Shown here: positions 92 to 63,238 of the stretch, piece by piece
Layout of the letters: every line of letters starts with the position of its first letter
How positions within the stretch are numbered: the stretch's first letter is position 1
DNA from: Amoebophrya sp. A120
Lineage: Eukaryota; Protista; Dinoflagellata
DNA length: 64,000 nucleotides
Direction: 5' to 3'
Assembly (NCBI GenBank): GCA_905178155.1
Contig: CAJINV010000002.1
Span: 1,153,809-1,217,808, forward strand
Made by a program: the position numbers and the translations under genes
Notes under the pieces: model-generated
Databases searched by the model: none
Seen by the model: the letters and a program-made list of their open reading frames with translations, nothing else
What the model was told of the DNA's origin: nothing

Positions 92-1044
92 AAAGTACTC
101 CTTTGTTTTTTCCTCTACTTTCGACTTGATCTCGCCGGATTTTTCGATGACCTTGGACTTGTACTCCTCCGTTTTTTCAAGCGTCTTCTGCACCTTCTCG
201 TTTGCCAGGAATTCCCCGTATTTCTTCTTATGGCCGTCTCAAACGTTACATTCTCAACTGTTACACGATTTGCCATGCAAAATCAACATCAACATCAACA
301 GGGTGAAGCGACTTCGCATGACAAACTCCCGGAGGGCTAAACAGCATTGAAATCTGTGCGGAATCTGTAATGCTAGAGGCGCAATTGTCCCCCTTTGAGT
401 TTTCCTATTCTTGCATTCCAAGTTCATGTAACAGTTGAGAATGTAACAATTGAGAGTCCCATACTCCTTCGCCTTTTCTTGTGCGGTCGCCGCCATCGCG
501 GTGCCCTTCTCCGTTAAGTTCTTTACCCTGTTGTTTTTTCTTCAATTTCCACCAAATGTTGAACGAGAATTTGTCATGCACATCGACCAAGAACTGTCTG
601 AACCTCAAACGAAGATCGAACATTTGTCATGCGGACGCAAGAATAGAGGGTTTCACTGTCATGCAAGAGCAGTAGTAGAAAACATAACTCTTTACCTTTC
701 ATTTTCCTGCAGCTTCGAGTAGGTCTCCTTTGCCTTCTCCTTCGTTTTGTCGACGATTTGTATATATCCTGTGCAAAAGTATCGCACTTCTGCGAATTGC
801 AATCTTGCATATACAGATCTCTCTCCTATAGGCAAATCAACATGACAAACAAAATGTGTCTCAGCTTCCTGCGAAAATAAAAATTTGTGATGCAATTTGT
901 ACTAAAGTACGATGCTTTTGTAAAAATGCATAGGGTTCCCTTTTCGGAGAGGTAGGTTACCGCAGCGCCGACTTTTGTTTGGTTCTTCGGTGGATCCGGG
1001 ATCGGATCGGTTATCTCGGCTGGCCCGCTGCTGGAGTCCGCCAT
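1..1044 (-). CDS. Lys/Glu/Ala-rich helical repeat protein (LEA-like), 3' end runs off the window; spliced
   Basis: ATG at 1044 (MADSSSGPAE). Exons join in frame across TIR elements 765-932 and 229-463 and GT-AG intron 528-695: ...EKGTQIVDKTKEKAKETYSKLQENERVKNLTEKGTAMAATAQEKAKEKYGEFLANEKVQK.... The LEA-like call rests on composition only. Confidence 0.7.
229..463. mobile_element. TIR introner, family A
   Basis: TIR TATGGC..TCTCAA..GTTACATTCTCAACTGTTACA; flanks cttct/ctcct; homologous to 60588-60828. Confidence 0.9.
528..695 (-). other. GT-AG intron
   Basis: AAG|GTAAAG...CAG|G junctions restore the frame (ENER-VKNL). Contains three GCATGACA motifs on the sense strand. Confidence 0.75.
765..932. 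mobile_element. TIR introner, family B
   Basis: TATCCTGTGCAAAAGTATCG...CGATGCTTTTG..GCATA; flanks diverged (gtata/gggtt); removal of element+5 nt keeps the frame. Confidence 0.8.
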
Positions 1045-1730
1045 TTTGAGCGAATTCTGCTCGTCTCGGTAGCACAACGAACTACTGGCTGCTCTACTAG
1101 CTACGTTGTCTCTTTGTCTTTGTCTTTGCGTGCAGCAAGATTGTTTTTCTAGGTTGTACTCCAGGAATAAATCAAGTGGAAAAAGTTGTGGCCAAAATTT
1201 GTTTTATCGGGTCGTCGAACTACTACAGGTCCTGAGTTCTTGTAAGCAAAAGAAAATCGCTCATCGGTCCACGCCAATCAAATTCCAGGAACAACAGGTG
1301 GAGGTCCGATATTTCTAGTACAGCACGACCGTGTGAATAAAGATAAACATCATCCTGCTCCGTACTAGTGTAGTGGACTACAACTTCTGTACTTCCGCAC
1401 AGGAGGCGAAGGAGGGGGTGATGCGACTCAATCTCAACTACCAGGGCTTCCTGCTGTTCTGCTCTATTCTATTCTGTTTCCTATCTTTTTCTTTCGCTCT
1501 GTCTTTGTCTCATCTCTAGTACGCGCTCGTCCCTCTCTCTCTGTCTCTCGGCTTCGGTTTTCCTCTTTTAATTATTCGGGATGCCTTACTTGCTTGTAAA
1601 AGTAGTTTTTCTGTCTTTGCGAGAAGCACTGAATTACCTTGCATAGCGGAGGACAGAACAAAGATTATGGCGTGAAAATAGGTATTCGTATTGTATTCAG
1701 GAGGCGAAAGTTAGTTGTGAAACAACATCT

Positions 1731-3471
1731 TATCGCACTAAAAAAATCGATCATACTCATATTTGGCCGAATTCAAGACACAAAAAATGCTACTTTTTTG
1801 AAAAAAGCCTGCGCTTTTTTAACAAAAATCCTGTATTTCGGCAGCGATTTTTCTTTTTCGGCGGAAAATTTGCATGGCTTGGAGGTAAGGCCTGGAGCAT
1901 TCTGCTTGGGCGGCAACGTTGCTGAGCTCTGGACTGGCTGCCTGTAGTAGTTCAACTAGCTACGAGGAGGCGACTGGCGCGGATATGTCGCCCGCGACAA
2001 TTGTCCTGGCTCTGCTCTTCGGCCTCTTGCCGGCCCCCTCTTACCGGTCCAAGCCCCTCCTCACCTACCGGCCCCGCCGTCGGGCGCTTGTCTCTCATAA
2101 CTCCCGCTCCCAAGCCTGTCACATGGATGGAGGCAAAGGATCCACGCAGCCTGGCACATGCTCGGCCCAGGAGGAAAGGAATGGCCTTCAGGATGCCAGC
2201 TCTAGCCCCGCTGAGACGGTGCTGCGACAAACATGCATGGGTTGTGCTGGGGGCCGCGCAAAAGCCTAAGGGCTGGGCCTTCTATTTTGAGGCGTTCTGG
2301 GGTTCTTGGGCAGACCTCCGGTGGCATCCTCTGGCACGCCTCCACAGGATCGCCGCCAGAGCGATCGACCAGGGACGGGACCAAAAAAGGCCATCTCAAA
2401 CAGCAATTTTCAGTGCGGAGAACGTGGAAAAACGGCCAACAAAACGTGGCAAAATCGGCAAAAGCTGACAGCTTTTGCGGTATGATCAATTTTTTTTAGC
2501 ACGAGCTGAGTCCGGAATCGATCATATTTGCTGACCTGCGCCGTAGCACCGCGATTGGCGTTTTTTCAAAAACTGTAAATTTGCAAATTTTTCACCATAG
2601 CAGCGGCCCAAAAAAATTGATCATATGCCAAAAGCTGCCATTTTCTTTTAGAAAATTTGAAAAAAGTGAAAAAATGGCATTAATCATACTCGCAAAAATG
2701 TATGATCTATTTTTTTGGGACCGAGCTAACGGCCATTTTTTGAGGCCGATCGATCATATCGAAAATCGGCATTTTTTCGAACTTCGAAAAAGTGCGAAAA
2801 TCTTGCCAAATTCAGCTGTGGAAGTTCAGCAAATCGACTCCGCTGATGGGGCGGCCCGGAAGAGGTCTCCGGCGCCCGAAAGTGATATGATCGATTTTTT
2901 TGATCCGCATGCAATGGCCGTCTTTTCGAGGCCAATCATGTGCCCACTTTGCCTTAGCTCATCTGGGGCCAGAAAGTGCGCGAGCAGTCTCTCCAGATTG
3001 GACGGCGTTGCCGGTCTGGGGGGGGGCAAAGCAGTTAAAATCCCGACGAGGAGCTGGTGGTAAGTAAGGCCAAGGCGGGGTATCGGGCTCCTCGGCATGT
3101 GCCCAGAAATGCAGGCCCATGGCCATAACGCCAACGAAATCAATGGGACAGGGCCGCGCAATGGTATTGGTCTCCAGTAGTTGCGCCATCTTCTTTGTGG
3201 TTTGTCTGACGGCCCTATTGGAGTAGCATCCGCCTCCTCATAGCTACTCGGCCTGCTGCCGCCTCTTAGTTGCTGGAGTAGCGAAACTACTCCAAGCAGC
3301 CAAAGAAGATAGGCCGCGCAATATTTACGTCATAAGAGCACCAAAACAGAAGCGGCTGCCCGGGTCTGCCGGACACCGCGAAAAATTTTTGAAAATAAAA
3401 AATTGAAAAAATAGCGATTTTTGGGCTTTTTGCGGCCCTGTATGAGTATGATCGATTTTTTTGGTGGGATA
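1731..3471. mobile_element. 1.74-kb intergenic non-autonomous TIR transposon with TA ends and 5-bp TSD
   Basis: 31-bp TIR TATCGCACTAAAAAAATCGATCATACTCATA / TATGAGTATGATCGATTTTTTTGGTGGGATA (2 mismatches); TSD catct at 1726-1730 and 3472-3476; internal copies of (A)TCGATCATA; GC-rich core; no transposase recognised. Confidence 0.9.
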
Positions 3472-3795: not shown

Positions 3796-5275
3796 ATCGT
3801 TGGGCCCGTGGTATCCAGTTGAAGGTTTTGCCTTCTTCTCTGTTTGTTTGTTGCTTTTGGATGCACGGAATCCGGGTGAAGTTTTCTTCTTCTCTCGTGT
3901 GGTTCTAGCGCTACTTGAAGAAAAAGCCAGTGTGCCAGAGCCGCTTGAGGCCTGTTGAGAAAAAAACGAAAAAGAAAGCTGAAAAGATAAAAAGATAAAA
4001 AGTTGGCGTCGATGAAGGAGAAGACTCTACTGAAATGTTACAAAATCTGCTTGAAGTGTTTCTGATGTCTAGTTTGTGCAAAGATTACGAAAAGAGTTGT
4101 GAAATTTCTCGTACGGTTTGAGAGTTCTACTTGCCCTGTCGTAGAAGTTTGTTGAAAGTGCAAAGGTTCTACAGCTATTTCAAGAAAAAAGTATCATGTG
4201 GAAAGAGCATGTTCGGCTTGGAACTAACAAAAGAAATCTAGAGAAAGCGAAAGCCCTGCTGTAAAATTAAAGTTGAAAAGTTAAAAACTTGGCGTTGAGA
4301 GTTACAAGTCTACTTGGAGTGTTGCTGTCGTAAACAAAGGTTGGTTTTGTTGCTGCTGCGAAAAAAAAGTCAAAGAGTCTAAAAGTTGAAGTCTGGCAAA
4401 AAGCGAAGGGTTCCTGAAACTGTAAAATAAAAATCAAAAGTGAATAGAACAAAAATGCAAAAGTTGTGCTGCAACGAGGGGAATTTTTTTTTTTCCTGAG
4501 ATTAACTTTTTCTTTTTTTTTACTTTTTGCGTTTTGCTGCTACTTACTCTCCTTGTTGTGGGATGTTATTGTACTTCTTTTCTTTATTGCTGCAATACAA
4601 AAAAAGTGTGAAAGCGAGAAGACGAAGAAGAAGCGTGCTTATGGTTCTCTTGTATAAAAAATTTTGCAAGTAACACTACATTCGTTATCGCCGTAGATTC
4701 AAATACAATTTCTTAACACCATACTGGCTGGCTGGTTGCATCGTAAAAATTTTGCTATCCAATCTCACGCACGAGCAAACTCGAAAGAACAGCTGCTGCT
4801 TCCAAAAAACTCAATGTCGAAGAGGAGAAGACACATGATTTCTTTGTGGGAAAGAACCCAAATGACAACTGCGGCCCAACGACACCAAAAAGGGTCAGCT
4901 TTCCCGCCCGCGCCGGGGATTGCGTCCGGCTCTCCCGCCCGCGCCGCGGTTGAATCCGCCTCCCTACCAGTCTTGTCCGTACTTGGCAGGCTTTGCCTTT
5001 GGAGGTGGAGCGGTCGGCGCATTGACCAGTTCATGCGCCTGGTCGATATCCAATGCAAAGAACATGTCTGGGGCTGGCATAAAAAGGCTTGTGGCTGTGA
5101 TGCTGAGCTCTGAATGATTGAACCACTTCCGAGCGCTAGTACCCAGCATGATAAGTTTGCAGAGCGCCTCGTTCCCATACGCAGCTCGCATGAGATGCCG
5201 CATTTTTGTGTGACAAAAGAGACTGCGTTTGCGTTTGCGACCACTATTTTTGCTCATGCAATAAAGATTTCCATT

Positions 5276-7071
5276 TCACAGAAACAGAACAAATGTAGTA
5301 AGACCTCCAGCATTACACGCTCGAACTTCCACACCCAGACATATTAGCAATGCGAATGCATAGTCGATGAGCTTGAACCATTCGTCCATCTGACCTTCAG
5401 GTATTGGCACTTGTGCTGGCTGCGACAACTTGCTCCTCGAGTCCGGGTGATAAAAGAACTGAAGCACACTCTTTTTCGCAACTTGCGCTCCCTCGCCGCT
5501 TTTATCGGGCAGCTCAAGCTTAGCCAAGTTGTCATATCTTTGAGGCGAAGGGCCCCTGAACACCTGTGGATTTACCTTCACAAACTTCTGCAGGGCGAAA
5601 AGGACCTTTCGCGCATCGTTTTGGTCTTCCTTGGGAACGCGGCCCAAGTCATCTGCGACTTCGTTTTTGAAGGGCAGTCGCAGTTCGTGTGTTTTGCCGT
5701 GTTTATCTGTCATGACCGGAATGTTGTTTAGGCGATTCATCGGGTTTTTCCACGCATCAGGAGAATTTTTCCACGCCTGAGTAGGATCCTTGTTCCCTTT
5801 TGAAAACGAAAAACGATGCGCAACGCACAGCGCAAGGCTTGGCGTGTGGTGCGGCGTCTACATTTTTTTCTTGGCCTACACTCTGCTCTGTGAGATGAAT
5901 AAAGCTGGTGGCGAACCGCATGCGGGCAGCAGGATGCAAATTATCACTAATGTGTATCTTGTTGCGCCGGCATCACGGTTTTTACGAATGCGAAACCAGA
6001 ATGCCGAGCGCCGCTCCAGGCGTGGCATCAATGCAAAGCTTGCACCTCCTTCACCACCACGCCTAAGTCCAATTGCGAGCGCGAAACGGCGAACAAGGTC
6101 ACCTTCGGTAAGTCGCGCTGGCGCTCCTGCTGTTGACGAAAATCATGGTACTGATTCTCGGAACGCCTCCGCGCCTCCTTTGCTTCTTCCGCCTTTTTTG
6201 CTGCGGCTTTCGCCTTTTGCTCCGCTTCCTCCGTATCGCGCCGCTCCTGTTCCCGTTTTTGTTCCTCTGCCCACGCCCGGTCCTCCGCCTCCTTCTGCTC
6301 CTTCTGCCTGCGCTTTTCTTCTTCCGCGCTTCGCTTCCGTTGTGCTTCCTTCGCTTTCGCCTTTTTCTCCTCCGCTTCTTTCTTCGCCGCTTCCGCTTTT
6401 TCCCGCGCCGCTTCCGCGTCTTCCTTTGCGGTCGCTAAGAATGCTTTTGCTTTCTCGTCCTGTTCTTTCCAGAATTTCGCTCGAGCTTCCTTGTCCAGGT
6501 CCGGCTGTGCTCCACCTCCTGATGAATCACTTGAAGAAGCTTTCTCCGGACCCGCGGCGCCGTTTCTTTCGGATTCGGCTCTTGCCGCGAAGAGTGCTTC
6601 TGCTCTCTTGGCTTGTTGTCTCCATTTCTCCGCTTCAGCTTCCCTCTCGGCGTCTCTCCTTTCAGCTTCTTCCTTTTCTGCCTCGTGAAACGCTTTCCAG
6701 AAATCGTCCGCCTTCTTCTCCGGTGGTTTCGGCTGCCATGTCGGCACTCCGGTTGAAAAGTGGCACTCGTCCAGTGAAAGAGGTTTCTTTGGATCCTGGT
6801 CCCAAAGTTTATCCTCGAGGCAGTCACGCGCGCTTCCAAACCGTTCTCTTGTCATCTGCCAACCCCGGTCCGTGAACTCCCACGCTGTATACTCGCCGCT
6901 CTTCTCCATATTGAACAAGACATACTCCTCTCTTATCCCCAGGAAATCTTTTATCGCACTGGTGCCCGTGAAGATACAACAATTTACAGCACGTATTGGA
7001 AGAAGACGTCGTCCTAGTTGTTGACTACCAAGAGCAGTACCTTGATGTTCATCTGCAACTAAGTACAACAA
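5276..7071 (-). CDS. Coiled-coil protein with C-terminal J-domain-like (HPD) region; 5' end undefined
   Basis: ORFs 6028-7071 and 5276-5740 join in phase 0 via GT-AG intron 5777-6102. The C-terminus RYDNLAKLEL...AKKSVLQFFYHPD...MDEWFKLIDYAFALL follows the DnaJ J-domain pattern. Confidence 0.6.
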
Positions 7072-8462
7072 AACAACAAGACCGGCTAGATGAAACGATT
7101 GATAGTATCATCTCCCCTTGGCCCTGGTCCTAGTGGTGGAGATCGTGGCTCATCCGAAATGAACTCTTAATTATATTAAAATTATGCATTTTGTGTCGTG
7201 TTAGCATCATGCGCGATAAATCTAATATTGCGTTTGCGCTGCGTACGCTTCTTGGGGTCGCACCATAGCTGTTTGGAAACAGCCTGTTTTTTGTCCCACT
7301 TCCACAGATCTCCCTCTGGATCTCCGTACCGACAGTTTTTTCCTTCCCACACTTGCTCTCGCCCGTTGTGCCAGTACTGGTGTGGAAATTTGAATTTAAT
7401 CACTTTTTGTGGATCTGCAGCTGCCTCATGTGGCCCTGGTGCTGCTTGAGTGAACTGAAGATCTTTATTTTCACATCATGTACAAATCAATATGGTCTTC
7501 TAGTAGACTAATATCATTGCAAATATACCTTTCATATATATTTACGTGCAAGAAAGCAAATTAATACTGCTGGCTCTTCCTGCTCCAGCAAACTTCCGGG
7601 GGCGAGGATCCGGTCTTCGCCGACATCATCTCCCACGACCAGTGGGGGCGCAGCGTCGTGCCCGGGCTCCTGCTCGAGATATGCAACACAAACATGCCCT
7701 CGCTGCCTACAGCTGCTGCCATCCTCGTCCACAGGAAGCTTGCATCTTCTATCTTCATGAAAGGCGGTACTCGTGGTACTGGTACTGCAACAAAAAAATA
7801 CTTGATCATACAACGAACCAGTGCATCTTCGTAAAGAACTGACCCTGCGATGGTCATCTGGTCGATGGTCCAGTACGTAGTGCACAGGAGCAAGACCTCT
7901 CTTGCTACAGGTTACAGCACATCCATCATCACACTTTCCTCTCGCACGCTCGGGAAGACAAAGGCTGAGCGCCGGTGGCAGGGAGGAACTAGATTTTTTT
8001 TTCTCCATATGTAAACAGTGTCCCGCTTGTCCAAACCGTCCTCGGCAATCGCAAAAATCTCCCCGGTCGCCGCTTCTTGCGCCGAGGAAGGGTGCGTTCT
8101 TGAGGCCGTTGGGCTCTCCTGTGTTTTTTAGTTTTTGTTTTATTCAATAGTTGACATCATCGTCAAGAAATCGGTTCGTCCAGTTGTTTTCTAACAAGCC
8201 AAACCTACATCAGTAGAAGAGCAAAAGCAAGCTATATCATATGCAATTCGACATGGGAGAGTGCCCGAGGAGGAGGACTTACCAAAAGCTTCAACATTGT
8301 CAGGAGCATAATACTTCGTGTTGGTGCGTAACGTGCAGCAACTGCAACAAAGAACTCGAGTAGAACTACATCAAGCCTGCTTAATCAGCCGTTTTTCTAT
8401 CGACATAGCTATCTTTCTACCGGAGCTGCATTTTTTGAAAAGCAAGAACGACTAGAAGCAGT

Positions 8463-9142
8463 ACCCCTTCCGCGGCGGCCCCTCGAACAAGTTCCGCGTC
8501 CTTGCCAATGAGTTCTTGCAAAGTACTGGACGAGGACGCGCCATCTTCCAAGGATTGCCCTTCTGGCCCACTGTCTTCAACTGCTGGTTACATTATGAGA
8601 GTGTACAACTCCCCCTTCGTTTTTCCCTTGATTCAAGAGGGCAAAAGTTGTAACCGCAACAGAAGTCATCTCAGCCCTCAGGCCCAACAAAGATGCAGTT
8701 TCTGCACAGACGAAATTAATTGCGCAACCCTGCAGCTTCTGTTTGGGCTGCTGGAACAAGACGAGCCTGCATTTATTATGTGAAAGCAGGGCCATCACAA
8801 GGCCAGAGCTGCAGCTGACATTGCGTTTTTGCATGACAAATGAGGGGAACAAAGGTGGGAGTTGTGCACAACTCTCGTAATGTCGGTCCAGGCGAATTCC
8901 GCTTCTTGAAGAACATTGTCCTGTTGCTGATCATCAACACCTCCCTCCTCATGCGCCGCAATCTTTGTCGTGCTGGTCGAAGCGGCAGCTGCTGCGTGAG
9001 GACCGGCCGGATTTTCGTCTTTCTTCGTCTCCACGACCGGCGGCACATACACAATGCCCTCGCGCGCGTCAGCGCGGAAGTTCGGCCCAAACAAACCGGG
9101 GTCGAGGGCCTGCGCGCCGAACGGAGTCTTTATCCTCTGCAA
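8463..9142 (-). CDS. Hypothetical protein exons (possibly upstream exons of the J-domain gene)
   Basis: ORF 8795-9142 continues in frame after removal of element 8594-8879 plus 5 nt (..AWTD-x-PAVEDSGPEGQSLEDG..). Limits are uncertain. Confidence 0.45.
8594..8879. mobile_element. TIR introner, family E (degenerate)
   Basis: TATGAGAGTGTACAACTCCCCC...GGGAGTTGTGCACAACTCTCGTA; flanks tacat/atgtc. Confidence 0.75.
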
Positions 9143-19342: not shown

Positions 19343-19870
19343 TTTAAAAATCACGCCGCAGATTATAAATATGCAAAAAACCGCCGCGCGTGGGTAGGAA
19401 TACTTAATTTTGATTTTACACTTTTTAATGTCTACTTCAAGGATAATCGATATCGAAATCGCTTCCCAAAATCGTGGTGCGAAAAATCTCTCACAAAAAT
19501 CCTAGATCTCGCGACGTCAAGCTAAGATTGCGATTATGATTACTTTTACTATGGTGTCGAAAATGAAATCTTACAATTGATAAGTGGTTTTGTTTTTCTT
19601 TTTTTCAAACCCGTAATAGAGTTAGAAGCAAAAAAAAAAAGATAGGATAGAGGCAAGTCAGCGGAAAAGAAGCCGCGGTCTTCCTCTTCAATAAAACTGT
19701 GTACAATAAAATATAAATAAGCCCGATATTACGATAGAAGCACGCAGCGTCTCCTCGATGAAGCCGTTTATTTTTTCTCAGTTGTGCACTTACTAGATGA
19801 TGATGATCGGGGCCTACTGGTCGGTTTATTTGGGATGATCTTCTTGCTGGGAACCATAGTATCGATCCAG

Positions 19871-41968: not shown

Positions 41969-42095
41969 TATGAATTGCAAAAGTATCGTACTAGTAGTAA
42001 TTGCAATACAAATTCGCTCACTGATGTGCCTTGGGAGCCAGATTATGTAATGCATGAATGCGATTACTACGAGTACGATACGTTTGCACGGGATA
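41969..42095. mobile_element. TIR introner, family B
   Basis: Family B TIR; TSD caccc. Confidence 0.9.
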
Positions 42096-43671: not shown

Positions 43672-43790
43672 ATCGCACTCGTATAAATGCATGACAAATT
43701 CCGCTAGCATGAGGGTAATGCAGATTTACCTTGAGAAAAAAATCTGTAATGCATGATTGCAATACGAGTACGATACTTTTGCACAGGATA
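43672..43790. mobile_element. Family B element truncated at its left end
   Basis: Intact right end ...CGATACTTTTGCACAGGATA; the left TIR lacks its first ~15 bp and abuts the displaced exon. Confidence 0.8.
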
Positions 43791-51700: not shown

Positions 51701-54700
51701 TGCTCCACTCTGTCATCTTCACGGCGTTTGTTTCTTGCTCAAAATCCATCGCCCGGACAAAGTATGCCTCGCGGGAGTAGTCTTGGACCAAATTCTGGAA
51801 ATTCACCAAGTTCTTCTGGATCGTCTGCGGTTGGTTCGCGGTCTGGGGAAAGCTCTGCGCGTAAAACTCGGCCGGGGTTCCGTTTAAGTGGTATCTAATG
51901 TCGAGCAAGGACTCGTGCAGCTCTTCCAAAGACGTCTCTAACCCCTCGTCGAAGTGGTGTGTTGCGGAGTTCACATGGGAGAGGCAGACAATGGTTCTCG
52001 TGACGGGGTTCGTGGTAGAAGTGTAGACTCTCTCGATGTAGACGAATTCGCCACGAGGGATCAATAGTCCTTGGCTGTTGTCGACGGAATGTAAATCTTT
52101 TTCCAAAATCCCGTACACACCTGACATTATCTTCGGCTGCGCGCCCGTCACGAAATTCTTCTCCACTTCCACCTGATTTTTCGCCGACCCGTAGAAAACG
52201 TTGAAAATCTCCCGGTAAAGCTGCAAAGCCCGCCAGAATTTCAGCAGCTCTAACGTTACCCCCGATTGTTTCTGCGCGAGGTTGAGGAGGGAAAGTTGGG
52301 AGGGCTGGTCGTGGCGTGCTTTCATCACTTTCGCTAGAGAAGAAGCTGTTGAGCCGCCGCGTGCGTCGGGCGAGGAAGCTCTATTGTAGTTCCCGTCTTC
52401 TTGACTGGCGCCAATAGCGAATTTGTTGCTGCTTTTAATCGCCTGAGACGGCGAAGCCGGCTCGTTTCTACTTCTTTCTACACTCGTACTACCTCTTCTG
52501 TTCGGCGAAACCGGTGACACACTTCTCGACCCAGCGTTATCTTCTCGCCCGAACTGATCCAGACTATCTTTGCTTCCGTCCAAGACCGACACGTGCGGAT
52601 CTGTAGAGGACAACATTCCTTGCGTAGAAGTTCCGCCCATATCCACCTGCTTCGCGGCGTTCTTTATCGCGAAAATCTGGCTCAATTCCGACGTCGGGGC
52701 GATAAACCCTCTTCCTCTCTTCCCGTGCACCTCCTCGTCGTGCGCGTGGATTTCGTGAATGGCTTGCTTCTTCAGCTTTTTCTGAATCGCGTCTTTTTCA
52801 TGCTTCTCTAACAAAGCGAATTTATCCAGCTGCAAGTCCTCAACATTCCCGCCGGTACTAGTCGACTTGTTCGTGTTTGTCCCGAGCAAGTCCATTTCCG
52901 CAGCTTGCGATAAATCAATGTCGTCGAAACTCTTCGCGTTCACGTTGTGCAGGTCCATGATAGAAGATTTTGCCGTGGATCTTGGGTTGTTGTTCGACGT
53001 TCCAGTTGCAGTCGTTGACACCGTACCAAATGGGTAAGAAGAACTCTTCCCTTCCTCCTGCTCTTTTGTCACGACCTTCTGCATCACTTTCTCTAATAAT
53101 TTCGGCTTCGTTTCGAGAAAATTTTGCAAATTCTTCGGTAGGTTCAACACCTTCCCGTCTCGGATCTGCTTCGCGTATTCGGAAATTAAGGTCTGGTAGG
53201 TTTCCGGATCCGTTTGTTGCTGTTCCTTCATGGTCCCAGCGAGGAAACCCTGCAAGAGAAGTTCCAAATCGTTCTGTAACTGTTCCTCTTCCGATTTTTC
53301 CACCGTTAATCTGATTCCCGTGTTTTCGTGCACAAAGTCGGCGCCGATTTTTGCGCGGGAGTTCGGGGATAAGGGGCTTGATACGCCGTTATCGGGTCCT
53401 CCGACAAGATCTTGCGCCACCTTAGTCGGGCTGAGATTCGTACTCCTGATTCGCTTGTTGGTGATCGTGTTTCGGTCCGTGATGGAAAGACCGCCAGTAC
53501 TTGAAGATGCTCTTGCTCCCCCGCGGCCGGGTCCTGCAGATGAAGAAGATGAAGCAGCCGCATCTCCCTTCCCCACGTGATGCCCCCGCACCAAATTCAA
53601 CAAAGCCATCCCCTCGGCGACGGAGTTGATCTGCGTGACATCGTCGGGTGAGGCGGGTTTGATGTCCACGGTGTTCTCTTGGTTGGAGAGATGTTGCAAG
53701 CTCATGTTGAACATACGGGATTCCTTGTTCGCGTGGAGGTGGTGCAGTTTGTGCTTGTTTTCTACTTCGTCGTCGTGCTTGTCATGCGCAGAATTAACAC
53801 CACCCCCAGGACTCCTACTCGTCGGCGACAACGATCCACCGCCCCGGGAGGCAGACATCATATTACAATGAAAAATGCCCCCAACCCCGAAATTGAAAGC
53901 ATTTGTATTGCAAACCTTTCCAAATGAAACATTCGCCCTCTTGCATTTATCAGCATCACAGATTTCCGATCGCGAATAGCAAAACTTTGTATTGCAAAAG
54001 ATCCCAGCAAGAGCGGTGCTTGTCATGCAAGCGATGCGAAACACGACTAGACTCTACATCAGAAAGATTTATACTCCTTTCATGCATGACAAAAAGTTCT
54101 CATTTGGAAACTTCGCATCACAAATTTTTGCAACTTTGGGGGTGGGTGGCACTTTTCACTGTAATACATCATCAGCTCCCTTCTCACCTGCCCCTCCCGC
54201 TCCCCGGTCGCAGCGGCCGTGGTCGCGGACAAAACATCTTGGAGATAAGCGCACTTCGTTGCGAGCTGATTCCGATCCTCGGAAATCTCCTCGCACAGTT
54301 TTTTCCACGACTCCGACTCCAATTTCTGTGACTGGGTTAAATCGTCAAACTGAATTTCGTACTTCTGCTTCTTCGCGAAACTCGACCACAGCAGAAACAC
54401 GGTGACCATCAAGTAGTGGTTTTTTTGACTCGAAAACCGGTTCGTCGCGTAGTAGTGGAGTAACGCCATAGAACTATTCTGCATCTTACAAACCTGGCGC
54501 CAGTTCGTGAAATAGGTGTCTTTACTGTTCAGCATTCTGCAGTGGTCCAGTTGCATCGCCAGCTGCGACCGCAAATACTTCGCTTCCCGTCGTTTCTGCA
54601 CCCGGACTTGCCAGTTAAAGTACAGCTCCTCTACGTAACCGCACATCCTTTCAATCACGTTTTTCCGGTACAGTTATGAACTGCACAAGTATCGAGTACT

Positions 54701-57700
54701 CGTATTAAATTGCAACACAAAAAATTTTTACCTCAGCACGACAAACGGAATTTGTCATGCTGCTTTAACTTGAAAATGAAATTTGTCTTGCATGACGGCG
54801 ATTAGTACGAGTTGTACGATGCTTTTGCACAGGATAACAATTGCGTCATCGCGATTTCCAACCGTTTGTTGGATTTTTTCAACTCCTGCTTATACGCAGT
54901 GTATATCAACTGCAAATATGTCTGGGTCTGCAAGGCTGCAACTTGTAATGCTGTCTCTGGATTCTGAAAAAAGTTGCATTGCATGACCAGCAAAAGGACT
55001 CCAGTTTGTGCTACGCGGAGAAAACCTCTCTCATGCGGTAGAGGTATCAGTCACAAAGCGCTCCAAAATAAAATCTGTGATGCTACGGCATGCATCACAG
55101 AGATAGATTGGTCATGGAAAATATGCATGACAAACAAGGTCATGGCGCGGGGACAGAGTCCCCGCGCTGCGACCTTGCGGCGAAGAAGGGCCACCCGCGG
55201 TGGCTTTTCTTGCCCATGATGCGGCAGGTTTTTTTTTTGCATGCGACAGAACGGGGTGGCTTGGCGCTCGTGGTGCCGGCGCCCCCCCTGGAAAAATGCG
55301 CCTTTTTCTGCGCCCCTGGGCGGGGCGCCCCCCCCAAAGGACTACCCACGACCAACCGAGGGCGCGGCCGTCCGGGTGGTTGTTCTCCCGAACCAGGGCG
55401 CGCGGGCCTGTTTCTGCGCCCCTGGGCGGGGCGCCCCCCCAAAGGACTACCCAAGACCAACCGGGCGGGGCGCGGCCTTACCAGGGAGCGTGGACCTGTT
55501 TCTGCGCCCCTGGGCGGGGCGCCCCCCCCAAAGGACTACCCACGACCAACCGAGGGCGCGGTCGTCCTGGAGGCTGTTCTCCCGAACCAGGGCGCGCGGG
55601 CCTGTCTCTGCGCCCCTGGCTTGGCGGGGCGCCCCCCCCCCCCAAAGGACTACCCAAGCCCAACCGGGGGCGCGGCCTTACCAGGGCGCGTGGACCTGTT
55701 TCTATCTGCGCCCCTGGGCGCGGCGCCCCCCCCCCCAAAGGACCACCCACGACCAACCGAGGGCGCGGCCTTCCTGGAGCCTGTTCTCCCGAACCAGGGT
55801 GGGCGCGCGGACCTGTTTCTGCGCCCCTGGGCGGGGCGCCCCCCCCAAAGGACTACCCACGACCAACCGAGGGCGCGGCCTTCCTGGAGCCTGTTCTCCC
55901 GAACCAGGGTGGGCGCGCGGACCTGTTTCTGCGCCCCTGGGCGGGGCGCCCCCCCCAAAGGACTACCCACGACCAACCGAGGGCGCGGCCTTCCTGGAGC
56001 CTGTTCTCCCGAACCAGGGGGGGCGCGCGGACCTGCTTCTGCGCCCCTGGGCGGGGCGCCCCCCCCAAAGGACTACCCACGACCATGCGAGGTTGGCGCG
56101 GCCACCTTCCTGGAGCCTGTTCTCCCGAACCAGGGCGCGCAGACCTGTTTCTGCGCCCCTGGGCGGGGCGCCCCCCCAACAGGACTACCCACGACCAAGT
56201 GAGGGGGGGCGCGGCCTTCCTGGGGGCTGTTAGTTCGCTTCGCACTCCCGAATCAGGCCGAGCGGACCTGTTTCTGCGCCCCTGGGCGGGGCGCCCCCCC
56301 CCCCAATGAATAGGCAGCCAACCTTTGGCCCCCGGGGTCGGGCCTGACTCTTGAAAAGCGGCCCCCGGGGTCGGGTATTCCTTTTCCGAAGTCAGGTGGG
56401 GGGCATGTTTTGAGTTGTGCAGGAGGTTTTTGCCGATTCGGGTCGTGTTTGATACCCCGGAACAGGGGTCGGAACATACCCCGGAACATACCCCAGAACA
56501 CACCCCCAAACATACCCCAGACCATACCCCGGAACTCACTTTCCGACAGTCAGGCTCGGGGTCGAAGCTGACTCGCGAAAAGTGATGTCCGGGGTCGGGC
56601 GTCACTTTTCCAGAGTCAGGTGTGGGGTATGTTTTGGGGGGTGCATGAGGAAATGGCCGTGTTAGCTCGTGATTGATACCCCGGAACATGGGTCGGAACA
56701 TACCCCGGAACACCCCCCGAAAACTCATTTTTGGGCAGTTGCTGCAGTTTAAATAGTAATCTGGAAATCTTCCAGACCCAGACAAATTTGCAATGCATAG
56801 TGTACAGCTCGTGGAGGGTGAAATGCGTGTTCGTCGCGTCCTTGTCCAGCTGAAGCCAGGAGTCTTTGAAAAGATTCAGGATTTGCTCCAACTGTTGCAC
56901 CAACAGATTGATTTTCAAGTCGTGCTGCTCGGATGGTGTAGTTGCTGATGTTGGGGATTGTAGCCTGGTTGTGCTTATTGTTCCTGGCGAAGATCCACGA
57001 AGATGCTCCATCCCTGTGGTTGAAATCTGCCTCAGCAAATCCAGTATCTGCATCGACTCGTCTAACTTTGGTAAAACCACATCAATCATCCTCGACGTCT
57101 CCGCTTGCGGCACGGATTGGTCGTCTTGTTCGATCCCGCCAGAAATCGTTCCCTTCTGCAGCATCTGCTGGTGTTTGTTCAGAACGTGGTTTAGGTGGAT
57201 GACGGATTTGCGGGACAGCGCGTTCGGAGGAATTTTCAATGGGTGCTCTACTTCTTGGCCGGGTGGAGGTGCGGCTCGTGGTTGTTGTCCTTGTCCTTGT
57301 CCTGCGGAAGTAGTTGTAGATGGTGCCGCTTTGGTTTTGGACGCCGGCTGCTTCTGCTGAACAAACTTGTTCCCGCCTGGTGCAGCTGGCGAAGGGGTCG
57401 TGATCATCTTGAATTGATACTCCACAGGAGCACTACTAGAACCTCCGGGACTCGAACCTCCGCTGGAAATAAGCCCACTTTTTTTCGACCTCGACGGCGG
57501 CTCCGCAAAAAACGCAAACGGCCTGGTATTCGATGACAAAACTGGACTCACACCCACTCCAGAAAACTGCGCTTCCTTCAAATCCCGGATGAATTTCATG
57601 GTTTCCTCCTCGGAAAACCGGGCGGATCGGTGCATTTCCCCCATCTTCACCAATTCGTGTTGGTGGTCGGGGATGGGGTGGAAGCTGGAAAGATATGCAT

Positions 57701-60700
57701 TGCAAAAGTATGATCGTACTGGTACTAATTGCAGCCCTGCATTACAAATCTCTTTCCTAAGGGAAATCCGCATTACAAAGTCCGTTTGTCATGGTCATGA
57801 AGCAGGTCCGTCAGGAAATTTGTCATGCGATTTGTAGTACTAGTACGCTGCTTTTGCAATGCATAAGAGGGAGTGGTTATCGGAGGAAGAAGACGATCTT
57901 TCGAAATCCTTCGCCAAATCTCGATCCAAAGCCTCCTGCATCTCGCGCTCGCTGCGGAAGAGGAATGCTTGGTTGTTATTCGCGTTGTAAAAATTTGGCG
58001 GCTTCGGTTTATTGTTCTTTGCAGGACCACCTGCTCCTGTGCTGGTTCTACTGATGCGGTGGCCCCGGCCTGCTGCAGCTTTTGCGGTAGACGAAGACGA
58101 TGAAGATCCACCACGACTTGCTTTCCCGTAGTTCACAATCATGTGGTCGTTTACTTCTCCCTGACTCATCCCTTCCCCGAAGGATATGTCGTCAATCATC
58201 TCTGCTTCGGGAATCGGGTTCATCAAGACCGATTTTTTCGCATCGCCATCCCGCAGCTTCACGGCCTGTTTAAACGCAAGAGAACTCGGGTCCGCGTCTA
58301 ACTCATTTGCCAAACAACTATCAAGGTCGTCCCCTTCATCGTCTTCAATGTCGTCAACTAGGAAATCATCTAAGAATTCCGCGTTGTTACCGATGAAGTT
58401 ATCCAAATTCAACATCGTGTTCGCCGGGTCCGCTATCTTCAACTTCTTGTTTAGTCGGAGTTTCTTCTTCCCATCCGCTGTCAACATGCTGTTCGCCACG
58501 TCCAAATCCCAATCGAGCAAATGCCGTGCGTCCTCGTGGTTCCCGAAGCTGGGGAGGTTTTCGATGTCGAGGTCGAGTCTCCTTTGCCGTGTTCTTTCGT
58601 GTTTGTCTAGCAGTTATGCATTGCAAAAGTATCCTACGCTACCGTAACCGTACTAGTAGCGATTGCATTACAGGTTCCTACTTGTACTTGTCGAGCAGGA
58701 GAAATCGAGTTTGTTATGCAGAGTCAGGTCGAGCACAAGATCTGTCATGCATGACTGCAATCAGACAGAAGTACGAGCACGATATTACTTTTGCAGAGCT
58801 TAGGAGTGTGCTCGGGTCCGCGTGTTCTTCCTCCATCAATTTTCTTTCCTCAATTTCCTTCTTCACTTTCCTCACTGCCTGTTTCTGGATAATCTTCATC
58901 TGCACCACGGAGTCCTCCGTATCCGCAACAGAAATTTCGTCATTTGTCTCTCCATCGTCGATAGAATTATTATTCATGGCGTGGTCGCTGCGGATAAACT
59001 TCTGCTTCTTCAGCTCTTTTATCTTCTTCTCAATCTTCTCACTGACGATGAGAATGAAGTTCTCGTGCTTCATCTTCTCTAGTTTTCTCCTCTCCTTGAA
59101 GGACTCTTCTTGCTTTATTTTTTCGCTGGTGGATTTATTTTGCTGGTTTTTCCTCTCCTCCTCTGCTTCTGGGTGATCCATATCAAATGCAAAAATGTCT
59201 GGGAGATTGATTGTGATGCAGTTTTTCCATGGCCCATGATGTTTGGAATGCAGGACCTACCATGACAGATTCTGTGCGATCTCTCTCAACATGCCTATCC
59301 TGCATGAGAAACTCCCTCCCGCCGACTTGGTCAAAACTGGACGACTTTTGGCAATCATGCAGCGCAGATTTTTGCATGCTTCAGATTTAGCATGACAAGC
59401 TGGACTCTTCCAGACCCAGACACTTTTGCATTTGATAATCCAGCGCGGAAAACAAAACTCCGTGGGGATTTTCCGCTGTGGGTTTTGTCAAGTACTCCTC
59501 TCCCGCAACGTGGGTTTTGAACTTGATCTTCTCCAGGATTTTCTCGTCTTCCAACTCGTGGATCCGGTCGATTAGAATCCTCAACAGCTCCTTTTTCTTC
59601 AAATTTCCAACTAATAATTTCTCGCTGTACTCGTTGTCCACAGCCAGTTCCGGAAACCCCTTGTTCACGATAGATTGTAAATGCATCTCCAATATGAACT
59701 GCAAAAGTATCGTAGTCGTATAAATGCATTACAAATTGCCTCAGCATGAGAAATAAAATCGAGTAGGCCAATTTCCCAACGACCCTTCTGTGCTATGATT
59801 GCAATACAAGAAAAAAAAAATGGCTGTCGAATCTGGAGCGAGTGCTGAATTGTCGCCCTGCATCGTGGCACGCCCCCGGGTCATTAGAACTCCCACGGCT
59901 GCAGTGTAGAGCTCCTCGCTGTTCGCTGGATAAGCGGCTGCTCCAGTTGGGCCCCCTGGCACCCTAGTCCTACTGCGGCCGCGCCCCCGCCTGCTGCGCG
60001 CAGTCAGGGTCGCAGAGAATCGGCCTAATGCCCACTCGTTGCTATGCGTACTATGCGTGCTATGCTTGCTATGTTTGCTGTGTCGGGGGTGCCACAGCAC
60101 ACATAGCACACAATTTTGGCCCGCGCACGGTGCTGTGCGTGCTATGCGTGCTGTGCGTGCTATGCGTGCTATCGTTGCTGTGGGCCGCTCGCTAATGCGA
60201 CCACAGCAACGAGTGGCTCGGCCCTGCACCCCCCAGCAACGGCTCCAGGGAATGCCGCCGGAGCGCTGGGCCAAGTGCGAATGGTGTGGCGCGGGCCGCC
60301 GCAACGCGGCCGCCAACGGAAATTCCTAGCGCGCCTGCCTCTGGTGGTGGGCGGCTTTGCTTCTGCTTACCATCCGAATCGCCCGGCACAATCTGCGCCG
60401 GCTCTTTTTTCTTTTTGTGAATGCGATCATAGTGATTTAGGGTCGTTGGGAATTGACCTACATAAATAAAATTTGTAATGCGGATTTACCTTAAAAAAAA
60501 GACTTCTAATGCATGATCGCAATACGAGTACGATACTTTTGCACGGGATATCCAACTCCGTCACCCGCGCCATGAGCGCCAAATACGTATGGCGTTCTCA
60601 GACGTTACATTCTCAACTGTTACATGATTTGTCATGCCAAATTACAAGCAGAGTCGACGCGATCAAGCTGCTTCGCATGACAAATTCTAGGAAAGCCAAA

Positions 60701-63238
60701 TAGGGTGAGAATCTGTGGCAAATCTGTGATGCGGGACGTGCAAGGTCACCCCTTTCACTTTTGCCCTTCTTGCATCACAGATTCTAATTCATGTAACAGT
60801 TGGGAATGTAACAGTTGAGAGCGCCATAATACGTCGTTTGCGTTTCGAACGGGTAGCGTAAGAAATTCTCCGACAGACACCGCTGGAAAAACAACTTATT
60901 CGAACTGGCCTTGTCCGCGTGCAGGAGCTCCAGTTTCTGCTCCAGATGGGAAACGTGGGTGACTAAATCCCTTTGTCGGTTCTTGAACTTCTGCTCAAAA
61001 TAGGCCTGCATCCCGTGGTACTCCGTTTGAAACAAGTCGACTTTTTGATACAAAACTTGCGACGCTTTCGTCAAATGCTTCATCAAGGTCTTCTGCGACT
61101 CGAGGGAAGGGAGTAAGACTTTCTCCTTCGCGGTTAACTTCTCGTCGATCAGGTCCCGCAAGTCTTCGATCAGCAACAGGTGCTCGTCCCGAAAATGGAA
61201 AACCGAAGCGATCTCCGCTTCTGCCTGTTCTAGTTGTTTCTTCTCCTGCTTTTTTCTCTCGGTTGTTGTAGTATCCTGGCCATCTTCTCCGTCGTCGTCG
61301 AAAAACTGGTCGTTCAACTGCTGCATCTTCTGCTTCACGTAGTCGAGCACTTTTTGCAGTTTCTGGAAAAGCAGCTCGTAATTCTCGACCACCTGTTTCT
61401 TCATTTCGTCCAAAGACTGCATCCGAGCGTAGCGATTGACGTAGTCAGAGTTATTATTTGCGTCCTCCGACTGAGGATCCGGCTGTGTATCTTGTGGCGT
61501 GTCTTTTTTGTCCAGAAAATCGATGAATCTGAACTCTTTTTCCACATCCATTAAGTCCTGCGCTATTGGGAGCAACGCGAGGTGCTCTGCATGTAGCTCC
61601 CTATCCTGTGCAAAAGTATCGCACTCGTACTAATTGCATTTATGCATTACAAATCTTTTTCTTAAGCTAAATCAGCATTACAAATTTTATTTGTCATGCT
61701 GAGGAAATTTGTGATGCACTCATACGAGTAGGAGTACGATACTTTTGCAAACCATACTCCCTGACTTCTCTCGACTTCTGCAAGTACTGCCGGTTATCCT
61801 TTATCGGGTGCGGCCCGACCCTCTGTCGATCGAACTCGGAATAAGAATCCCGGAGCGCGGACTGCCATTGGTCAGTCAAATTCCCTTCCAAGGTGGCGAG
61901 GACGGCGTCGACCTGAGTTTCAAAAATTGGACAAGCATGTCGTTCTTTGTCATGCAGCAGCAGCTATGCAGTAACACTAACAACAAATACACGCATGGTT
62001 TCTGTTTGAATCTTTGTCATGCGGAACACGGAATAAAAGTAAAACATAATAAACGATTCTTACGTACGTATTCAGTACCTTCTCCTGCATCAGATCGTGG
62101 ATTTCATTAATCCGCATCTCCACTGCCTTTTCCCGCTGCAGAATCGAGTCCTTTTATCAAATGTAAAACTGTCTGGGTCTGAAAGAGTCATGCTGTTTTT
62201 GCATGACACAGAAGGTTTTGCATGGAAGCTCTAGCGTCACAGGTTTCGAGAAGCTTCCGCAATGCCGAGCCCGCATGAGAAATCCCCCATGTTGGTGACA
62301 GCAAGTGGGCAGCTTTTGCTACCTATGCATGAGAGATTTTTCTGTGTCGTAAAATGCGCATCACAAGTTCGGATCCTTCCAGACCCAGACGCTTTTGCAT
62401 TTGATACCTTTGTCGCCCCGACAATGTCCTCGGACACGAAAACTTGTTCCAGGTCTGAGAAAACCTTCCGTACGTAACTCCGGATTTCGTTCAACACAGG
62501 ACTGCTACTCGCTGGGATTTTTGATTTGGCAAACAATTCTTCGGCGTGGTCGTCTCTTTCCTGAACTTCATTGTCCAATTCCTCATACCAATGCTTCAGC
62601 TTCTCCGTCACTTCATACAGCTGCTCGATTTCTCTTTCGTGCTTCACTTGCAAGTCCAGCCGTTTTTTGTTCTCCTGCTTCTCGATTTGGTCGACAAAAT
62701 TCTCCGTTTTCTGTAGCAGCTTTGTGCAGGTTTGCAGGATGTTCGTGTGGTCCGTGGTGATCGGGATCTTTGCGCCACTGTTGAAAGGCTGTTGTCCGGA
62801 CGTTGCGCCGGCCTGCTTCCCGCCTTTGATATTACTGCTTCCTCCAAAGGCACGCGAAGAGGAGGATGTGCCAGCTTGTCCACCGGTGCTGTTTCTGGTG
62901 CTGGTCCGCGTTTTCCTTTCCATCTCCAGCAACTGATCTTCTTCCTGTTTCCTCTTTTCCAAAATCGTCCTGCAGCGGTTCAAGTCCGACCGGAGCTGCT
63001 CGAAGGCAGTTTTCTCCTCCTGTTGGCCGGGATTGAGCAAATCGTGCAGCATGTTCTCTCTCTGCGTTGGCTTGATCCGGGCAGTAGTACCGTCGAACGC
63101 TTTTTCTTTCTGCTGGAGTAGCCTTTCCTGGTCCTCGATTTTCTGCCTTTTTTGGATTCGGTTGAGAAGACGGCTCTTGGCCTCGGCGTGGAGGGGGTTG
63201 GGAGGGGGAGGAGCTCCCGGGGCTGGTGACGAGGACAT
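48780..63238 (-). CDS. Very large coiled-coil/low-complexity protein (~3067 aa, 14 exons)
   Basis: All junctions are in frame after removing 12 TIR elements (+5 nt) and GT-AG intron 61913-62078, giving 9204 nt from MSSSPAPG to KQMKKK*. No domain recognised. Confidence 0.8.
50658..50877. mobile_element. TIR introner, family E
   Basis: Perfect TIR TATGACAGTGCACAACTCCCCCTCCCCCT; TSD gcggt. Confidence 0.95.
50923..51244. mobile_element. TIR introner, family H
   Basis: TATTGA.A.GAAAAATCCC.CCTCCCCATATC.AAA.G TIR; TSD cggtg. Confidence 0.93.
53861..54166. mobile_element. TIR introner, family H-related
   Basis: TATTACA.TGAAAA.TGCC.CC.ACCCC TIR; TSD catca. Confidence 0.92.
54675..54836. mobile_element. 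TIR introner, family B
   Basis: Family B TIR; flanks acagt/acaat. Confidence 0.9.
54904..56799. mobile_element. Family C introner expanded to 1.9 kb by a nested GC-rich insertion
   Basis: Family C TIRs and TSD gtgta; removal fuses HELYT-AYKQEL; foreign DNA at ~55135-56760. Confidence 0.88.
55305..56305. repeat. GC-rich minisatellite, ~110-bp unit
   Basis: ACCTG(T/C)TTCTGCGCCCCTGGGCGGGGCGCCCCCCCC.AAGGACTACCCACGACC recurs at 55811, 55921, 56031 and ~56143, with variants; followed by 12-bp CATACCCCGGAA repeats (56450-56530, 56676-56720). Confidence 0.92.
57694..57865. mobile_element. TIR introner, family B
   Basis: TATGCATTGCAAAAG TIR; flanks aaaga/agagg. Removal plus 5 nt keeps the frame; removal using the apparent 3-bp repeat does not. 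Confidence 0.88.
58615..58802. mobile_element. TIR introner, family B (degenerate)
   Basis: TA.GC..TGCAAAAGTA TIR; flanks gcagt/ggagt. Confidence 0.85.
59181..59437. mobile_element. TIR introner, family C
   Basis: TATCAAATGCAAAA.TGTCTGGG TIR; TSD atcca. Confidence 0.92.
59693..60550. mobile_element. Family B introner carrying a nested transposon
   Basis: Family B TIRs, TSD tccaa; removal fuses VTELE-MHLQ. Confidence 0.9.
59760..60463. mobile_element. Nested ~700-bp TIR element with 9-bp duplication (Mutator-like MITE)
   Basis: TIR GTAGGCCAATTTCCCAACGACCC / GGGTCGTTGGGAATTGACCTAC, extending imperfectly for ~55 bp; AAATAAAAT duplicated at 59751-59759 and 60464-60472. Confidence 0.8.
60588..60828. 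mobile_element. TIR introner, family A
   Basis: TATGGCG.TCTCA...GTTACATTC.CAACTGTTACATGA TIR; TSD atacg. Confidence 0.93.
61602..61756. mobile_element. TIR introner, family B
   Basis: Family B TIR; TSD ctccc. Confidence 0.92.
62155..62406. mobile_element. TIR introner, family C; GT-AG compatible
   Basis: Family C TIR; TSD ccttt (aaagg on the sense strand). Confidence 0.93.

Follow-up and report, generated by a model that had tools for sequence, protein, structure and literature searches.

Inverted-repeat introners in a 64-kb window of the Amoebophrya sp. A120 genome: net removal of element plus 5 nt and a candidate fixed 1+4 cut register

The region analysed here (the window) is a 64,000-nt stretch of the genome of the dinoflagellate Amoebophrya sp. 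A120 (contig CAJINV010000002.1, positions 1,153,809 to 1,217,808), in which 44 inverted-repeat elements lie within minus-strand genes. When annotated A120 proteins were compared with the window, P0001, P0002 and P0005 proved 100% identical to the exons, and P0003 and P0006 mapped exactly. The elements are introners of A120: short, non-coding inverted-repeat elements with 5-bp direct repeats that the DNA contains, whereas RNA contigs lack them along with one copy of the repeat. They are likely cut 1 nt before TAT and 4 nt after ATA, and likely by the spliceosome; this account as a whole we regard as reasonably probable. A first-pass annotation of the same sequence had described these elements as non-canonical introns. 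That observation is real and was correctly described, and it rightly stated that introners are known in Amoebophrya, but the window holds the published A120 system itself and not a parallel one. The core system having been published, the finding as first written is a rediscovery.

The catalogue was built from scans for inverted repeats and for TA-bounded pairs and was mended with one annotated protein. Outside the 44 elements it holds one 1741-bp element beyond the gene models and one truncated copy. TA..TA termini occur in 43/44 elements, the exception being 35892 (elements are named by their lower coordinate), which starts with GAT; TAT is found at 43/44 left ends. A 5-nt direct repeat abuts both ends, perfect in 28/44, with one mismatch in 8/44 and with three or fewer of five bases matching in 8/44. 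As a chance control, flanks were cross-paired between different elements, and 5/5 bases then matched in 2 of 1892 pairs. TA ends and the direct repeat had themselves guided part of the selection for the catalogue, and an independent outside set was therefore examined: a metagenome collection scanned with the family-A terminal pattern gave 154 loci from 18 of its 64 parts, or 140 distinct elements, the far end of each being picked by the inner inverted repeat alone. Here the 5-nt repeat is perfect in 103/140, repeats of 3, 4, 6, 7, 8 and 9 nt number 2, 1, 0, 0, 0 and 0, and termini are TAT..ATA in 130/140. For this one terminal pattern ~440 stretches are estimated in the collection. The first-pass annotation had counted 41 complete elements, real ones though three fewer than here, with all but one TA..TA, as confirmed, and with 27 perfect, eight one-mismatch and six diverged repeats, which is essentially right.

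Single linkage of 45 elements gives 15 to 21 clusters, six of them multi-copy at each threshold, in agreement with the earlier figure of at least eight terminal-inverted-repeat families. Median element length in the window is 252 bp. Terminal pairing closes in 40 of the 41 folded elements (median fold z -5.5), and positions 1-3 and 11-13 of the terminal repeat are best conserved; AAA stands at positions 11-13 of most ends in families A, B, E and G and of some singletons, and not in C, D and F. The fold is not significant in the old elements 7680, 9131, 25038 and 26058 (z -0.3 to +0.2). Shortness, lack of coding capacity, terminal inverted repeats, a fixed target duplication and many copies are features of miniature inverted-repeat transposable elements (MITEs), and all are found here. 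Spacing between elements is often just 37-76 bp, leaving exons of 32-71 nt (14782-14820, 15863-15908, 26523-26574, 39010-39057, 50878-50922 and 60551-60587). Three elements are swollen by a tandem array of ~110-bp units or by inverted-repeat inserts (54904-56799, 59693-60550 and 39974-40983); their outer ends and 5-bp repeats are intact and the frames still close at element plus 5 nt. Translation of the swollen elements in three frames gave no Pfam match, and no transposase was found in the window. Rfam returned zero matches at gathering score across the window, with chance hairpin matches only at 19800-24700. Candidate element 8235-8409 was dropped, as it sits inside the GT-AG intron 8119-8464.

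Net removal of element plus 5 nt (+5) restores the coding sequence exactly. With +5 removed, 44/44 junctions lie in the longest stop-free frame (10 gene regions), one of them running through 3069 codons across 12 elements; without removal the frames close (964 versus 3069 codons). Both +4 and +6 shorten the frame for 39/44 elements, and the remaining five are not discriminating. The frame test is weak in the outside loci, where +5 gives 94/140 and other lengths 77-92. The TTL gene (Pfam TTL) carries 25038-25227 (old, family A; intron 25034-25228; repeat 4/5; RNA contig record 12), 25628-25935 (family D; intron 25624-25936; repeat 5/5), 26058-26215 (old, in the conserved TTL core; intron 26054-26216; repeat 5/5), 26292-26522 (family C; intron 26288-26523; repeat 4/5), these last three by RNA length sum, and 26575-26738 (family A, fold z -7.6; intron 26571-26739; repeat 5/5; RNA piece ending at 26739). 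At 26058, 26292 and 26575, +5 is gap-free in 86/89, 90/98 and 102/108 spanning homologues. At 25628 the homologues are ambiguous, preferring +8 (20/58) over +5 (8/56), and at 25038 their alignment is uninformative. Junction 15042 is the start of a D-x-D-x-S-type loop, a pattern which we take to be that of an EF-hand; Pfam EF-hands scored only in another exon of the gene. The earlier claims that +5 restores the frame, TTL motifs and EF-hand loop included, and that most junctions are not GT-AG (GT-AG is possible at 2/44) were thus upheld, with homologues at 25628 favouring +8.

RNA-contig evidence comes from run X3 and was read from piece ends and length sums, not from joints. The X3 contigs, which show no mismatches, break off at the edges of elements, and GT-AG introns are skipped as well. 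Five elements are missing from RNA contig 12, as are two GT-AG introns, and the unlisted middle of this contig (451 nt) is accounted for by five removals of +5 plus that of a 179-nt GT-AG intron; the unlisted middle of RNA contig 13 (391 nt) is accounted for by three removals of +5. Eleven elements have such support, seven by piece end and eight by length sum, the two groups overlapping. Besides those of the TTL gene they include 28877-29021 (family A; intron 28873-29022; repeat 4/5; record 13), 29078-29228 (singleton; intron 29074-29229; repeat 5/5; length sum), 29573-29840 (family B; intron 29569-29841; repeat 5/5; record 13) and 32653-32904 (family B; intron 32649-32905; repeat 5/5; piece ending at 32646), all four also in P0003, and 15909-16222 (family E; predicted intron 15905-16223; repeat 5/5), where frame and a piece ending at 16223 agree. 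RNA-read runs X9 and X10 cover 21903-22038 only and gave nothing on the elements. The DNA-like run X1 contains the elements: a 2035-nt contig crosses element 25038 without difference and other contigs run into elements. The 15 joints listed of 1141 in X1 are all element-to-element, with no empty-site joint among them.

Annotated sites equal +5 in 14/17 cases. The A120 gene models were built from transcript alignments with no ab initio prediction (PMC7789003, section 25), and their borders should therefore reflect RNA, if indirectly. P0002 supports 36792-37007 (family G; intron 36788-37008, GT-AG at register 4, a placement defined below), 37134-37441 (family D; intron 37130-37442), 38743-39009 (family B; intron 38739-39010), 39058-39307 (family B; intron 39054-39308) and the 1010-bp 39974-40983 with its inner inverted-repeat insert at ~40117-40849 (intron 39970-40984), every one with a 5/5 repeat.

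For most other elements the introns are predicted from the frame. At the low-coordinate end of the window these are 229-463 (family F; predicted intron 225-464; repeat 4/5; frame only), 765-932 (old, family A; 761-933; 2/5), where the frame test is not discriminating, and the singleton 5047-5362 (5043-5363; 5/5), unspliced in model P0001. A second group comprises 13257-13550 in the EF-hand gene (family E; 13253-13551; 5/5), 13938-14244 (family D; 13934-14245; 4/5), 14503-14781 (family E; 14499-14782; 5/5), 14821-14973 (family A; 14817-14974; 5/5), 15042-15334 at the EF-hand-type loop (family B; 15038-15335; 5/5) and 15652-15862 (family G; 15648-15863; 5/5). Element 35892-36169 (family B; 35888-36170; 0/5) is the sole one with a non-TA end; its annotated donor fits register 3 or 4, and its annotated acceptor lies elsewhere (a 504-nt intron, joined through a tandem repeat). 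Family-A element 41969-42095 (41965-42096; 5/5) lies in a short gene fragment and its frame test is not discriminating. Towards the other end of the window are 50658-50877 (family C, with a perfect terminal repeat; 50654-50878; 5/5), the singletons 50923-51244 (50919-51245; 5/5) and 53861-54166 (53857-54167; 5/5), 54675-54836 (family A; 54671-54837; 4/5), 54904-56799 (family B, 1896 bp through an insert with a tandem array; 54900-56800; 5/5), 57694-57865 (family A; 57690-57866; 3/5), 58615-58802 (family A; 58611-58803; 4/5), 59181-59437 (family B; 59177-59438; 5/5), 59693-60550 (family A, with an inner insert at ~59764-60460; 59689-60551; 5/5), 60588-60828 (family F; 60584-60829; 5/5), 61602-61756 (family A; 61598-61757; 5/5) and 62155-62406 (family B; 62151-62407, GT-AG at register 4; 5/5).

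The position of the cut within the repeat was expressed as a register, the number of bases that the upstream copy contributes to the retained repeat. Identical repeats leave the cut unplaceable, with 6-10 equal placements per junction; with perfect repeats aligners therefore place cuts arbitrarily, which alone would look like variability. The junction residues for each register were predicted before P0001 was retrieved. P0001 fits register 4 only at 9131-9458 (old; intron 9127-9459; repeat 2/5) and at 8594-8879 (old, family C; intron 8590-8880; repeat 0/5), and at 8594 registers 0-3 create a stop that shortens the frame, independently of the annotation. Register 3 or 4 is permitted at 7680-8009 (old; intron 7676-8010 or 7677-8011; repeat 2/5; P0001), at 18600-18957 (family D; intron 18596-18958 or 18597-18959; repeat 1/5; P0005) and at 17710-17972 (family C; predicted intron 17706-17973; repeat 2/5), where an RNA contig piece ends at 17705, the far side is not shown and +5 is assumed. 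P0006 permits register 4 or below at 22394-22662 (family C; intron 22390-22663; repeat 4/5), and ends of RNA pieces permit at least 2 at 25038 and at least 1 at 28877. Register 4 is included at every one of the eight junctions that carry information (families A, C and D plus two singletons) and excluded at none; two junctions are unique for it and the other six narrow the choice.

The intersection of the permitted registers is 4, and the intron would therefore be N-TAT...ATA-NNNN. These few junctions support a cut 1 nt before TAT on the 5' side and 4 nt after ATA on the 3' side (N/TAT...ATA/NNNN, slashes marking the cuts), in transcript sense and for either orientation of the element. They likewise support the view that the element ends, not the repeat, set the cut: +5 persists without a good repeat at 8594 (0/5), 18600 (1/5) and 7680 and 9131 (2/5). 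As the rule outlasts both repeat loss and hairpin decay, a machine that measures from the ends is favoured and template switching disfavoured.

The motif GCATNACA recurs in pairs 31-33 bp apart across families. The elements, 15.5 kb in all, hold 146 copies of GCA[TA]NACA; the 2.0 kb of other introns hold 10 and the other 46.5 kb hold 15. At a distance of 31-33 bp, 37 same-strand pairs were counted, whereas 2000 random placements averaged 3.5 and never exceeded 12. Copies within a family are not independent, but such pairs are seen in families A-E and G, as well as in four singletons and one GT-AG intron, and a spacing of 31 is the commonest in the outside family-A set. The motif occurs inside most elements and also in intron 528-695. 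As a general branch-point requirement it was rejected: 60 copies are sense and 86 antisense, and 11/44 elements are without a sense copy, among them 15909, an element skipped by RNA. A point in favour of a branch point is that 7/7 copies in four repeat-less GT-AG introns are sense; against it, the only place of the motif in two of these introns is 126-136 nt from the 3' end. Orientation-independence and the three-turn spacing suggest a putative DNA-binding site; opposite-strand copies also pair in folded RNA.

At register 4 the donor has T at +2 in 44/44 elements, A at +3 in 44/44, T at +4 in 41/44 and G or C at +5 in 42/44. Its first base is free (G13, C12, T11 and A8 in the window; G18, A17, C15 and T10 in 60 strand-called outside elements), and 15 of the 16 combinations of first and last base occur. 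All eight other GT-AG introns modelled in the window begin GTA. Measured against U2-type introns, GT/GC..AG ends occur in 2/44, and U at +2 with a purine at +3 in 44/44 at register 4, partly by selection. U6, U5 and Prp8 read the donor after U1 departs, and G+1 and G-1 pair in the second step of splicing. Because these two bases pair with each other, both could relax together, which favours the spliceosome. It is thus likely, judging from the bases at the donor, that a spliceosome reading U+2 and A+3 with relaxed G+1 and AG removes the elements. A120 has U2, U4, U5 and U6 and 83 of 89 proteins, with U1 not found (PMC7789003). Table S4 of the same paper gives T at +2 in all of the top nine A120 non-canonical classes and a TT start in all of the top nine A25 classes, and its section 11 describes A25 repeats that begin TTA plus two purines. 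By the register proposed here, the predicted A25 donor would be T/TA, whose first base is not free.

The proposed course of events is as follows. Insertion by a cut-and-paste DDE transposase, none of which was found in the window, would produce the 5-bp duplication. Net loss of element plus 5 nt restores the coding sequence, and on the few junctions available the intron appears to be N-TAT...ATA-NNNN, its cuts set by the ends. N/UAU(G/C) would then serve as a normal donor with a free first base, of which U6, U5 and Prp8 would read U+2, A+3 and U+4; terminal pairing would stand in for the missing U1 by drawing the two ends together, and distance from the 3' arm, not AG, would define the acceptor. 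Taken further, the U1-less A120 spliceosome might ignore both terminal intron bases, take any N/UAU donor and measure the acceptor exactly 4 bases past ATA. With a palindromic element and cuts that add up (1+4) to the 5-bp duplication, each insertion would be a scar-free intron from the outset, whatever its site and orientation, and the GCATNACA pairs would mark the site of one shared factor. We offer this joint reading tentatively and would stop a little short of giving it even chances. If it were true, the pairs would offer a handle on the factor, which could be a helper in chromatin or splicing or else the missing mobiliser.

Several observations weigh against a spliceosome cutting at one register. 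A single gene supplies all that decides between registers 3 and 4, namely two annotated junctions and a stop codon. Testing the register by A/T drift gave mixed results. Drift of the intronic repeat copy in the window gives no support, position 5 being as expected in 7/7 and positions 1-4 in just 10/17; among the outside loci (60/173 elements strand-called, 13 with one or two mismatches) positions 1-3 were opposite in 8/8 and position 4 as expected in 1/1, with no case at position 5. Non-canonical TT-GG intron 5795-6111 (P0001, single register), which has no clear inverted repeat, fits N/TA at its donor and has AAA where ATA is expected. Of the 17 annotated sites, three depart from +5: model P0001 retains 5047, model P0005 retains 17710, and 35892 is joined elsewhere. 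The counts of 44/44 for T+2 and A+3 are partly built in by the selection of TA ends, and the Table S4 classes may reflect aligner preference. The RNA label of run X3 is a guess, though X3 lacks GT-AG introns. No branch point was identified in the window elements. Elements 7680, 9131, 25038 and 26058 are removed without a significant fold, and a strong hairpin is therefore not needed. Splice sites are also called variable relative to the hairpin, with the border left unknown, in the Fig. 3 legend of PMC7789003.

The same elements and cut points could instead be handled by a non-spliceosomal endonuclease and ligase reading the terminal RNA helix, as proposed for the nonconventional introns of euglenids. 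Free first and last bases (15/16 combinations), staggered cuts of 1 and 4 nt beside a helix that closes in 40/41 folds, the want of an obligatory sense-strand branch motif (11/44 without the common motif) and the failure to find U1 would all suit such enzymes, and euglenid introns likewise have terminal pairing and repeat-like junctions (PMC11282704, in the portion used here). Yet the donors keep U+2 and A+3 as the GT-AG introns of the window do, and aged elements with decayed helices are still removed. Furthermore, the GT-AG intron 6930-7246 (minus strand; P0001, single register), likely an aged element, also fits N/TA...ATA/NNNN, which suggests a continuum of element introns with GT-AG introns, and the consulted part of bioRxiv 2025.08.15.670264 credits the spliceosome with removing tunicate transposon introns whose ends are non-canonical. 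Removal by a nuclease and ligase is judged unlikely, yet it is the chief rival to the spliceosome.

If net removal were always element plus 5 while the cut slid within the duplication or differed by family, as the logos of the original paper imply, the single register would be a small-sample effect. The two junctions unique for register 4 do come from one annotated gene, the drift test was mixed, the Fig. 3 legend of PMC7789003 speaks of variable sites, and among 21 of the 58 A120 family rows of PMC12130899 the automatically called repeats are 2-5 nt or none, with mixed donor classes. Against this, each of the eight informative junctions includes register 4 and none excludes it, and the 6-10 equal placements left by perfect repeats would mimic variability; a sliding cut seems improbable to us.

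The first-pass annotation had left open removal from the pre-mRNA or from the DNA, keyed on the termini or the hairpin. RNA removal at the termini fits all tests run, the cut not being flush with the TA ends (1 + 4), and the DNA option is without support. Excision from a somatic or stage-specific genome, in the manner of the TA-bounded internal eliminated sequences (IESs) of ciliates, would agree with the TA ends and with the fact that the RNA label of X3 is a guess. However, the X3 contigs also lack GT-AG introns, and X1 contains the elements, including on the 2035-nt contig across 25038, with its 15 listed joints of 1141 all element-to-element. Ciliate IES excision leaves one TA behind, whereas removal here takes both TAs, and we consider DNA excision very improbable. 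That the gaps are template switches of reverse transcriptase over a hairpin between direct repeats, real mRNAs retaining the elements, is hardly credible: all RNA evidence is cDNA and the artefact classically arises at a hairpin accompanied by a short direct repeat, but frames close without removal (964 versus 3069 codons), the TTL core needs removal to align with homologues, and +5 persists at repeats of 0-2/5 with a decayed hairpin.

Further features of the window include the 1741-bp TA..TA element 1731-3471, which has a perfect 5-bp repeat, internal copies of its own terminal motif and frames of 126-187 codons, lies outside the gene models and the 44, and is possibly a longer relative of the elements. 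A family-A element at 43676-43790 has lost its left terminus, and a predicted GT-AG intron on the minus strand (13616-13761) contains a family-A remnant. Introns 6930-7246, 13616-13761 and 5795-6111 (the last also on the minus strand) form an apparent ageing series, element-derived and now with GT-AG ends or with the inverted repeat lost. Three paralogous genes of a cysteine-rich family lie at 28780-33690, 35200-41300 and 43730-45750, with weak PAN_4 and DUF4886 matches below cut-off; the positions of their elements differ from gene to gene, and 43368-43676 is similar to 40985-41290. The genes at 17000-19900 and 21200-24400 (P0005 and P0006) are a tandem duplication, 61% identical over the queried exon and sharing one family-C element at the same site. 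Element 18600-18957 sits where the paralogue (23330-23370) has 22 extra nt; no repeat is left there, yet the annotated intron equals element plus 5. Segment 21903-22038, the sole part covered by RNA reads of X9 and X10 (90-99% identity), is about tenfold deeper than single-copy DNA in X1; it lies in an insert (~21650-22040) absent from the paralogous 17.4-kb region. Rfam found nothing in this segment, and as a guess it could be an organellar rRNA fragment. A degenerate tandem repeat (46150-46660) and a strong G+C palindrome (20919-20999) are both non-coding.

The 2021 description of A120 introners leaves open the cut position and the agent. A single 1+4 register, if true, would replace 'no splicing signature' by a precise rule, one that the A120 RNA-seq data already available could test. 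Annotated introns would have their borders corrected by the tens of thousands, and the lariat or circle junctions to be sought would be predicted. Such a register also suggests by what route coding exons can be invaded by a transposon without protein cost, and which part of the donor signal, U+2 and A+3, the spliceosome must keep.

Comparison with known systems places the elements among the A120 introners of Farhat 2021 (PMC7789003), whose text describes inverted repeats that begin with TAT, direct repeats of 3-5 nt (given as 5 bp under Fig. S19), more than 60% non-canonical introns, no U1 and a comparison with MITEs. Organism, TAT-initial inverted repeats, direct repeats, non-GT-AG ends and RNA-supported removal are the same, and the MITE and hairpin ideas are already there. 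The window elements lie in the A120 genome and have an end-pairing inverted repeat (at least 8-20 nt), TAT followed by seven loose bases and at least three A (AAA not in C, D and F), a direct repeat within the 3-5-nt range (5 nt in 28/44 in the window and 103/140 outside) and non-GT-AG removal (11 elements with RNA-contig support). The text of the paper leaves the border unknown or variable, whereas here one 1+4 register fits all informative sites; that text names no internal motif, and its terminal pattern has an AAA at positions 11-13 which is missing in families C, D and F. The fixed register and the paired internal motif are thus additions to the published system: no paper stating either was found in the literature searched, which was mostly non-subscription, and the figures of PMC7789003, which may show more on borders, were not part of the text compared. 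Gozashti et al. 2025 (PMC12130899) list 58 A120 families, mostly 'TIR DNA, superfamily unknown' among 21 rows, with lengths like those of the window elements and an integrase-like family 38. In those 21 rows the automatically called repeats measure 2-5 nt or are absent, and the co-opt/carry calls are mixed; the window elements have 5-nt repeats throughout, with each of the two cuts inside the duplication. IS3EU/GingerRoot elements, in the sections of PMC10045372 drawn on, share TA..TA termini, and their integrase-related transposases would fit family 38; their duplication is usually 6 bp, against 5 bp here (103/140 at 5 and 0/140 at 6), and membership in that group therefore fails on this feature. 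Ciliate IESs differ in that the DNA-like run contains the elements and removal takes both TAs. The nonconventional introns of Fritillaria borealis and of euglenids share a transposon origin, terminal inverted repeats, duplications and non-GT-AG ends, as far as the compared portions of PMC11282704 and bioRxiv 2025.08.15.670264 go. According to these, Fritillaria ends are mostly AG-AC or AG-AT, with U1 in the proposed model, and euglenid pairing starts at +4 to +6, whereas the A120 elements combine offsets of 1 and 4 with free bases at both ends.

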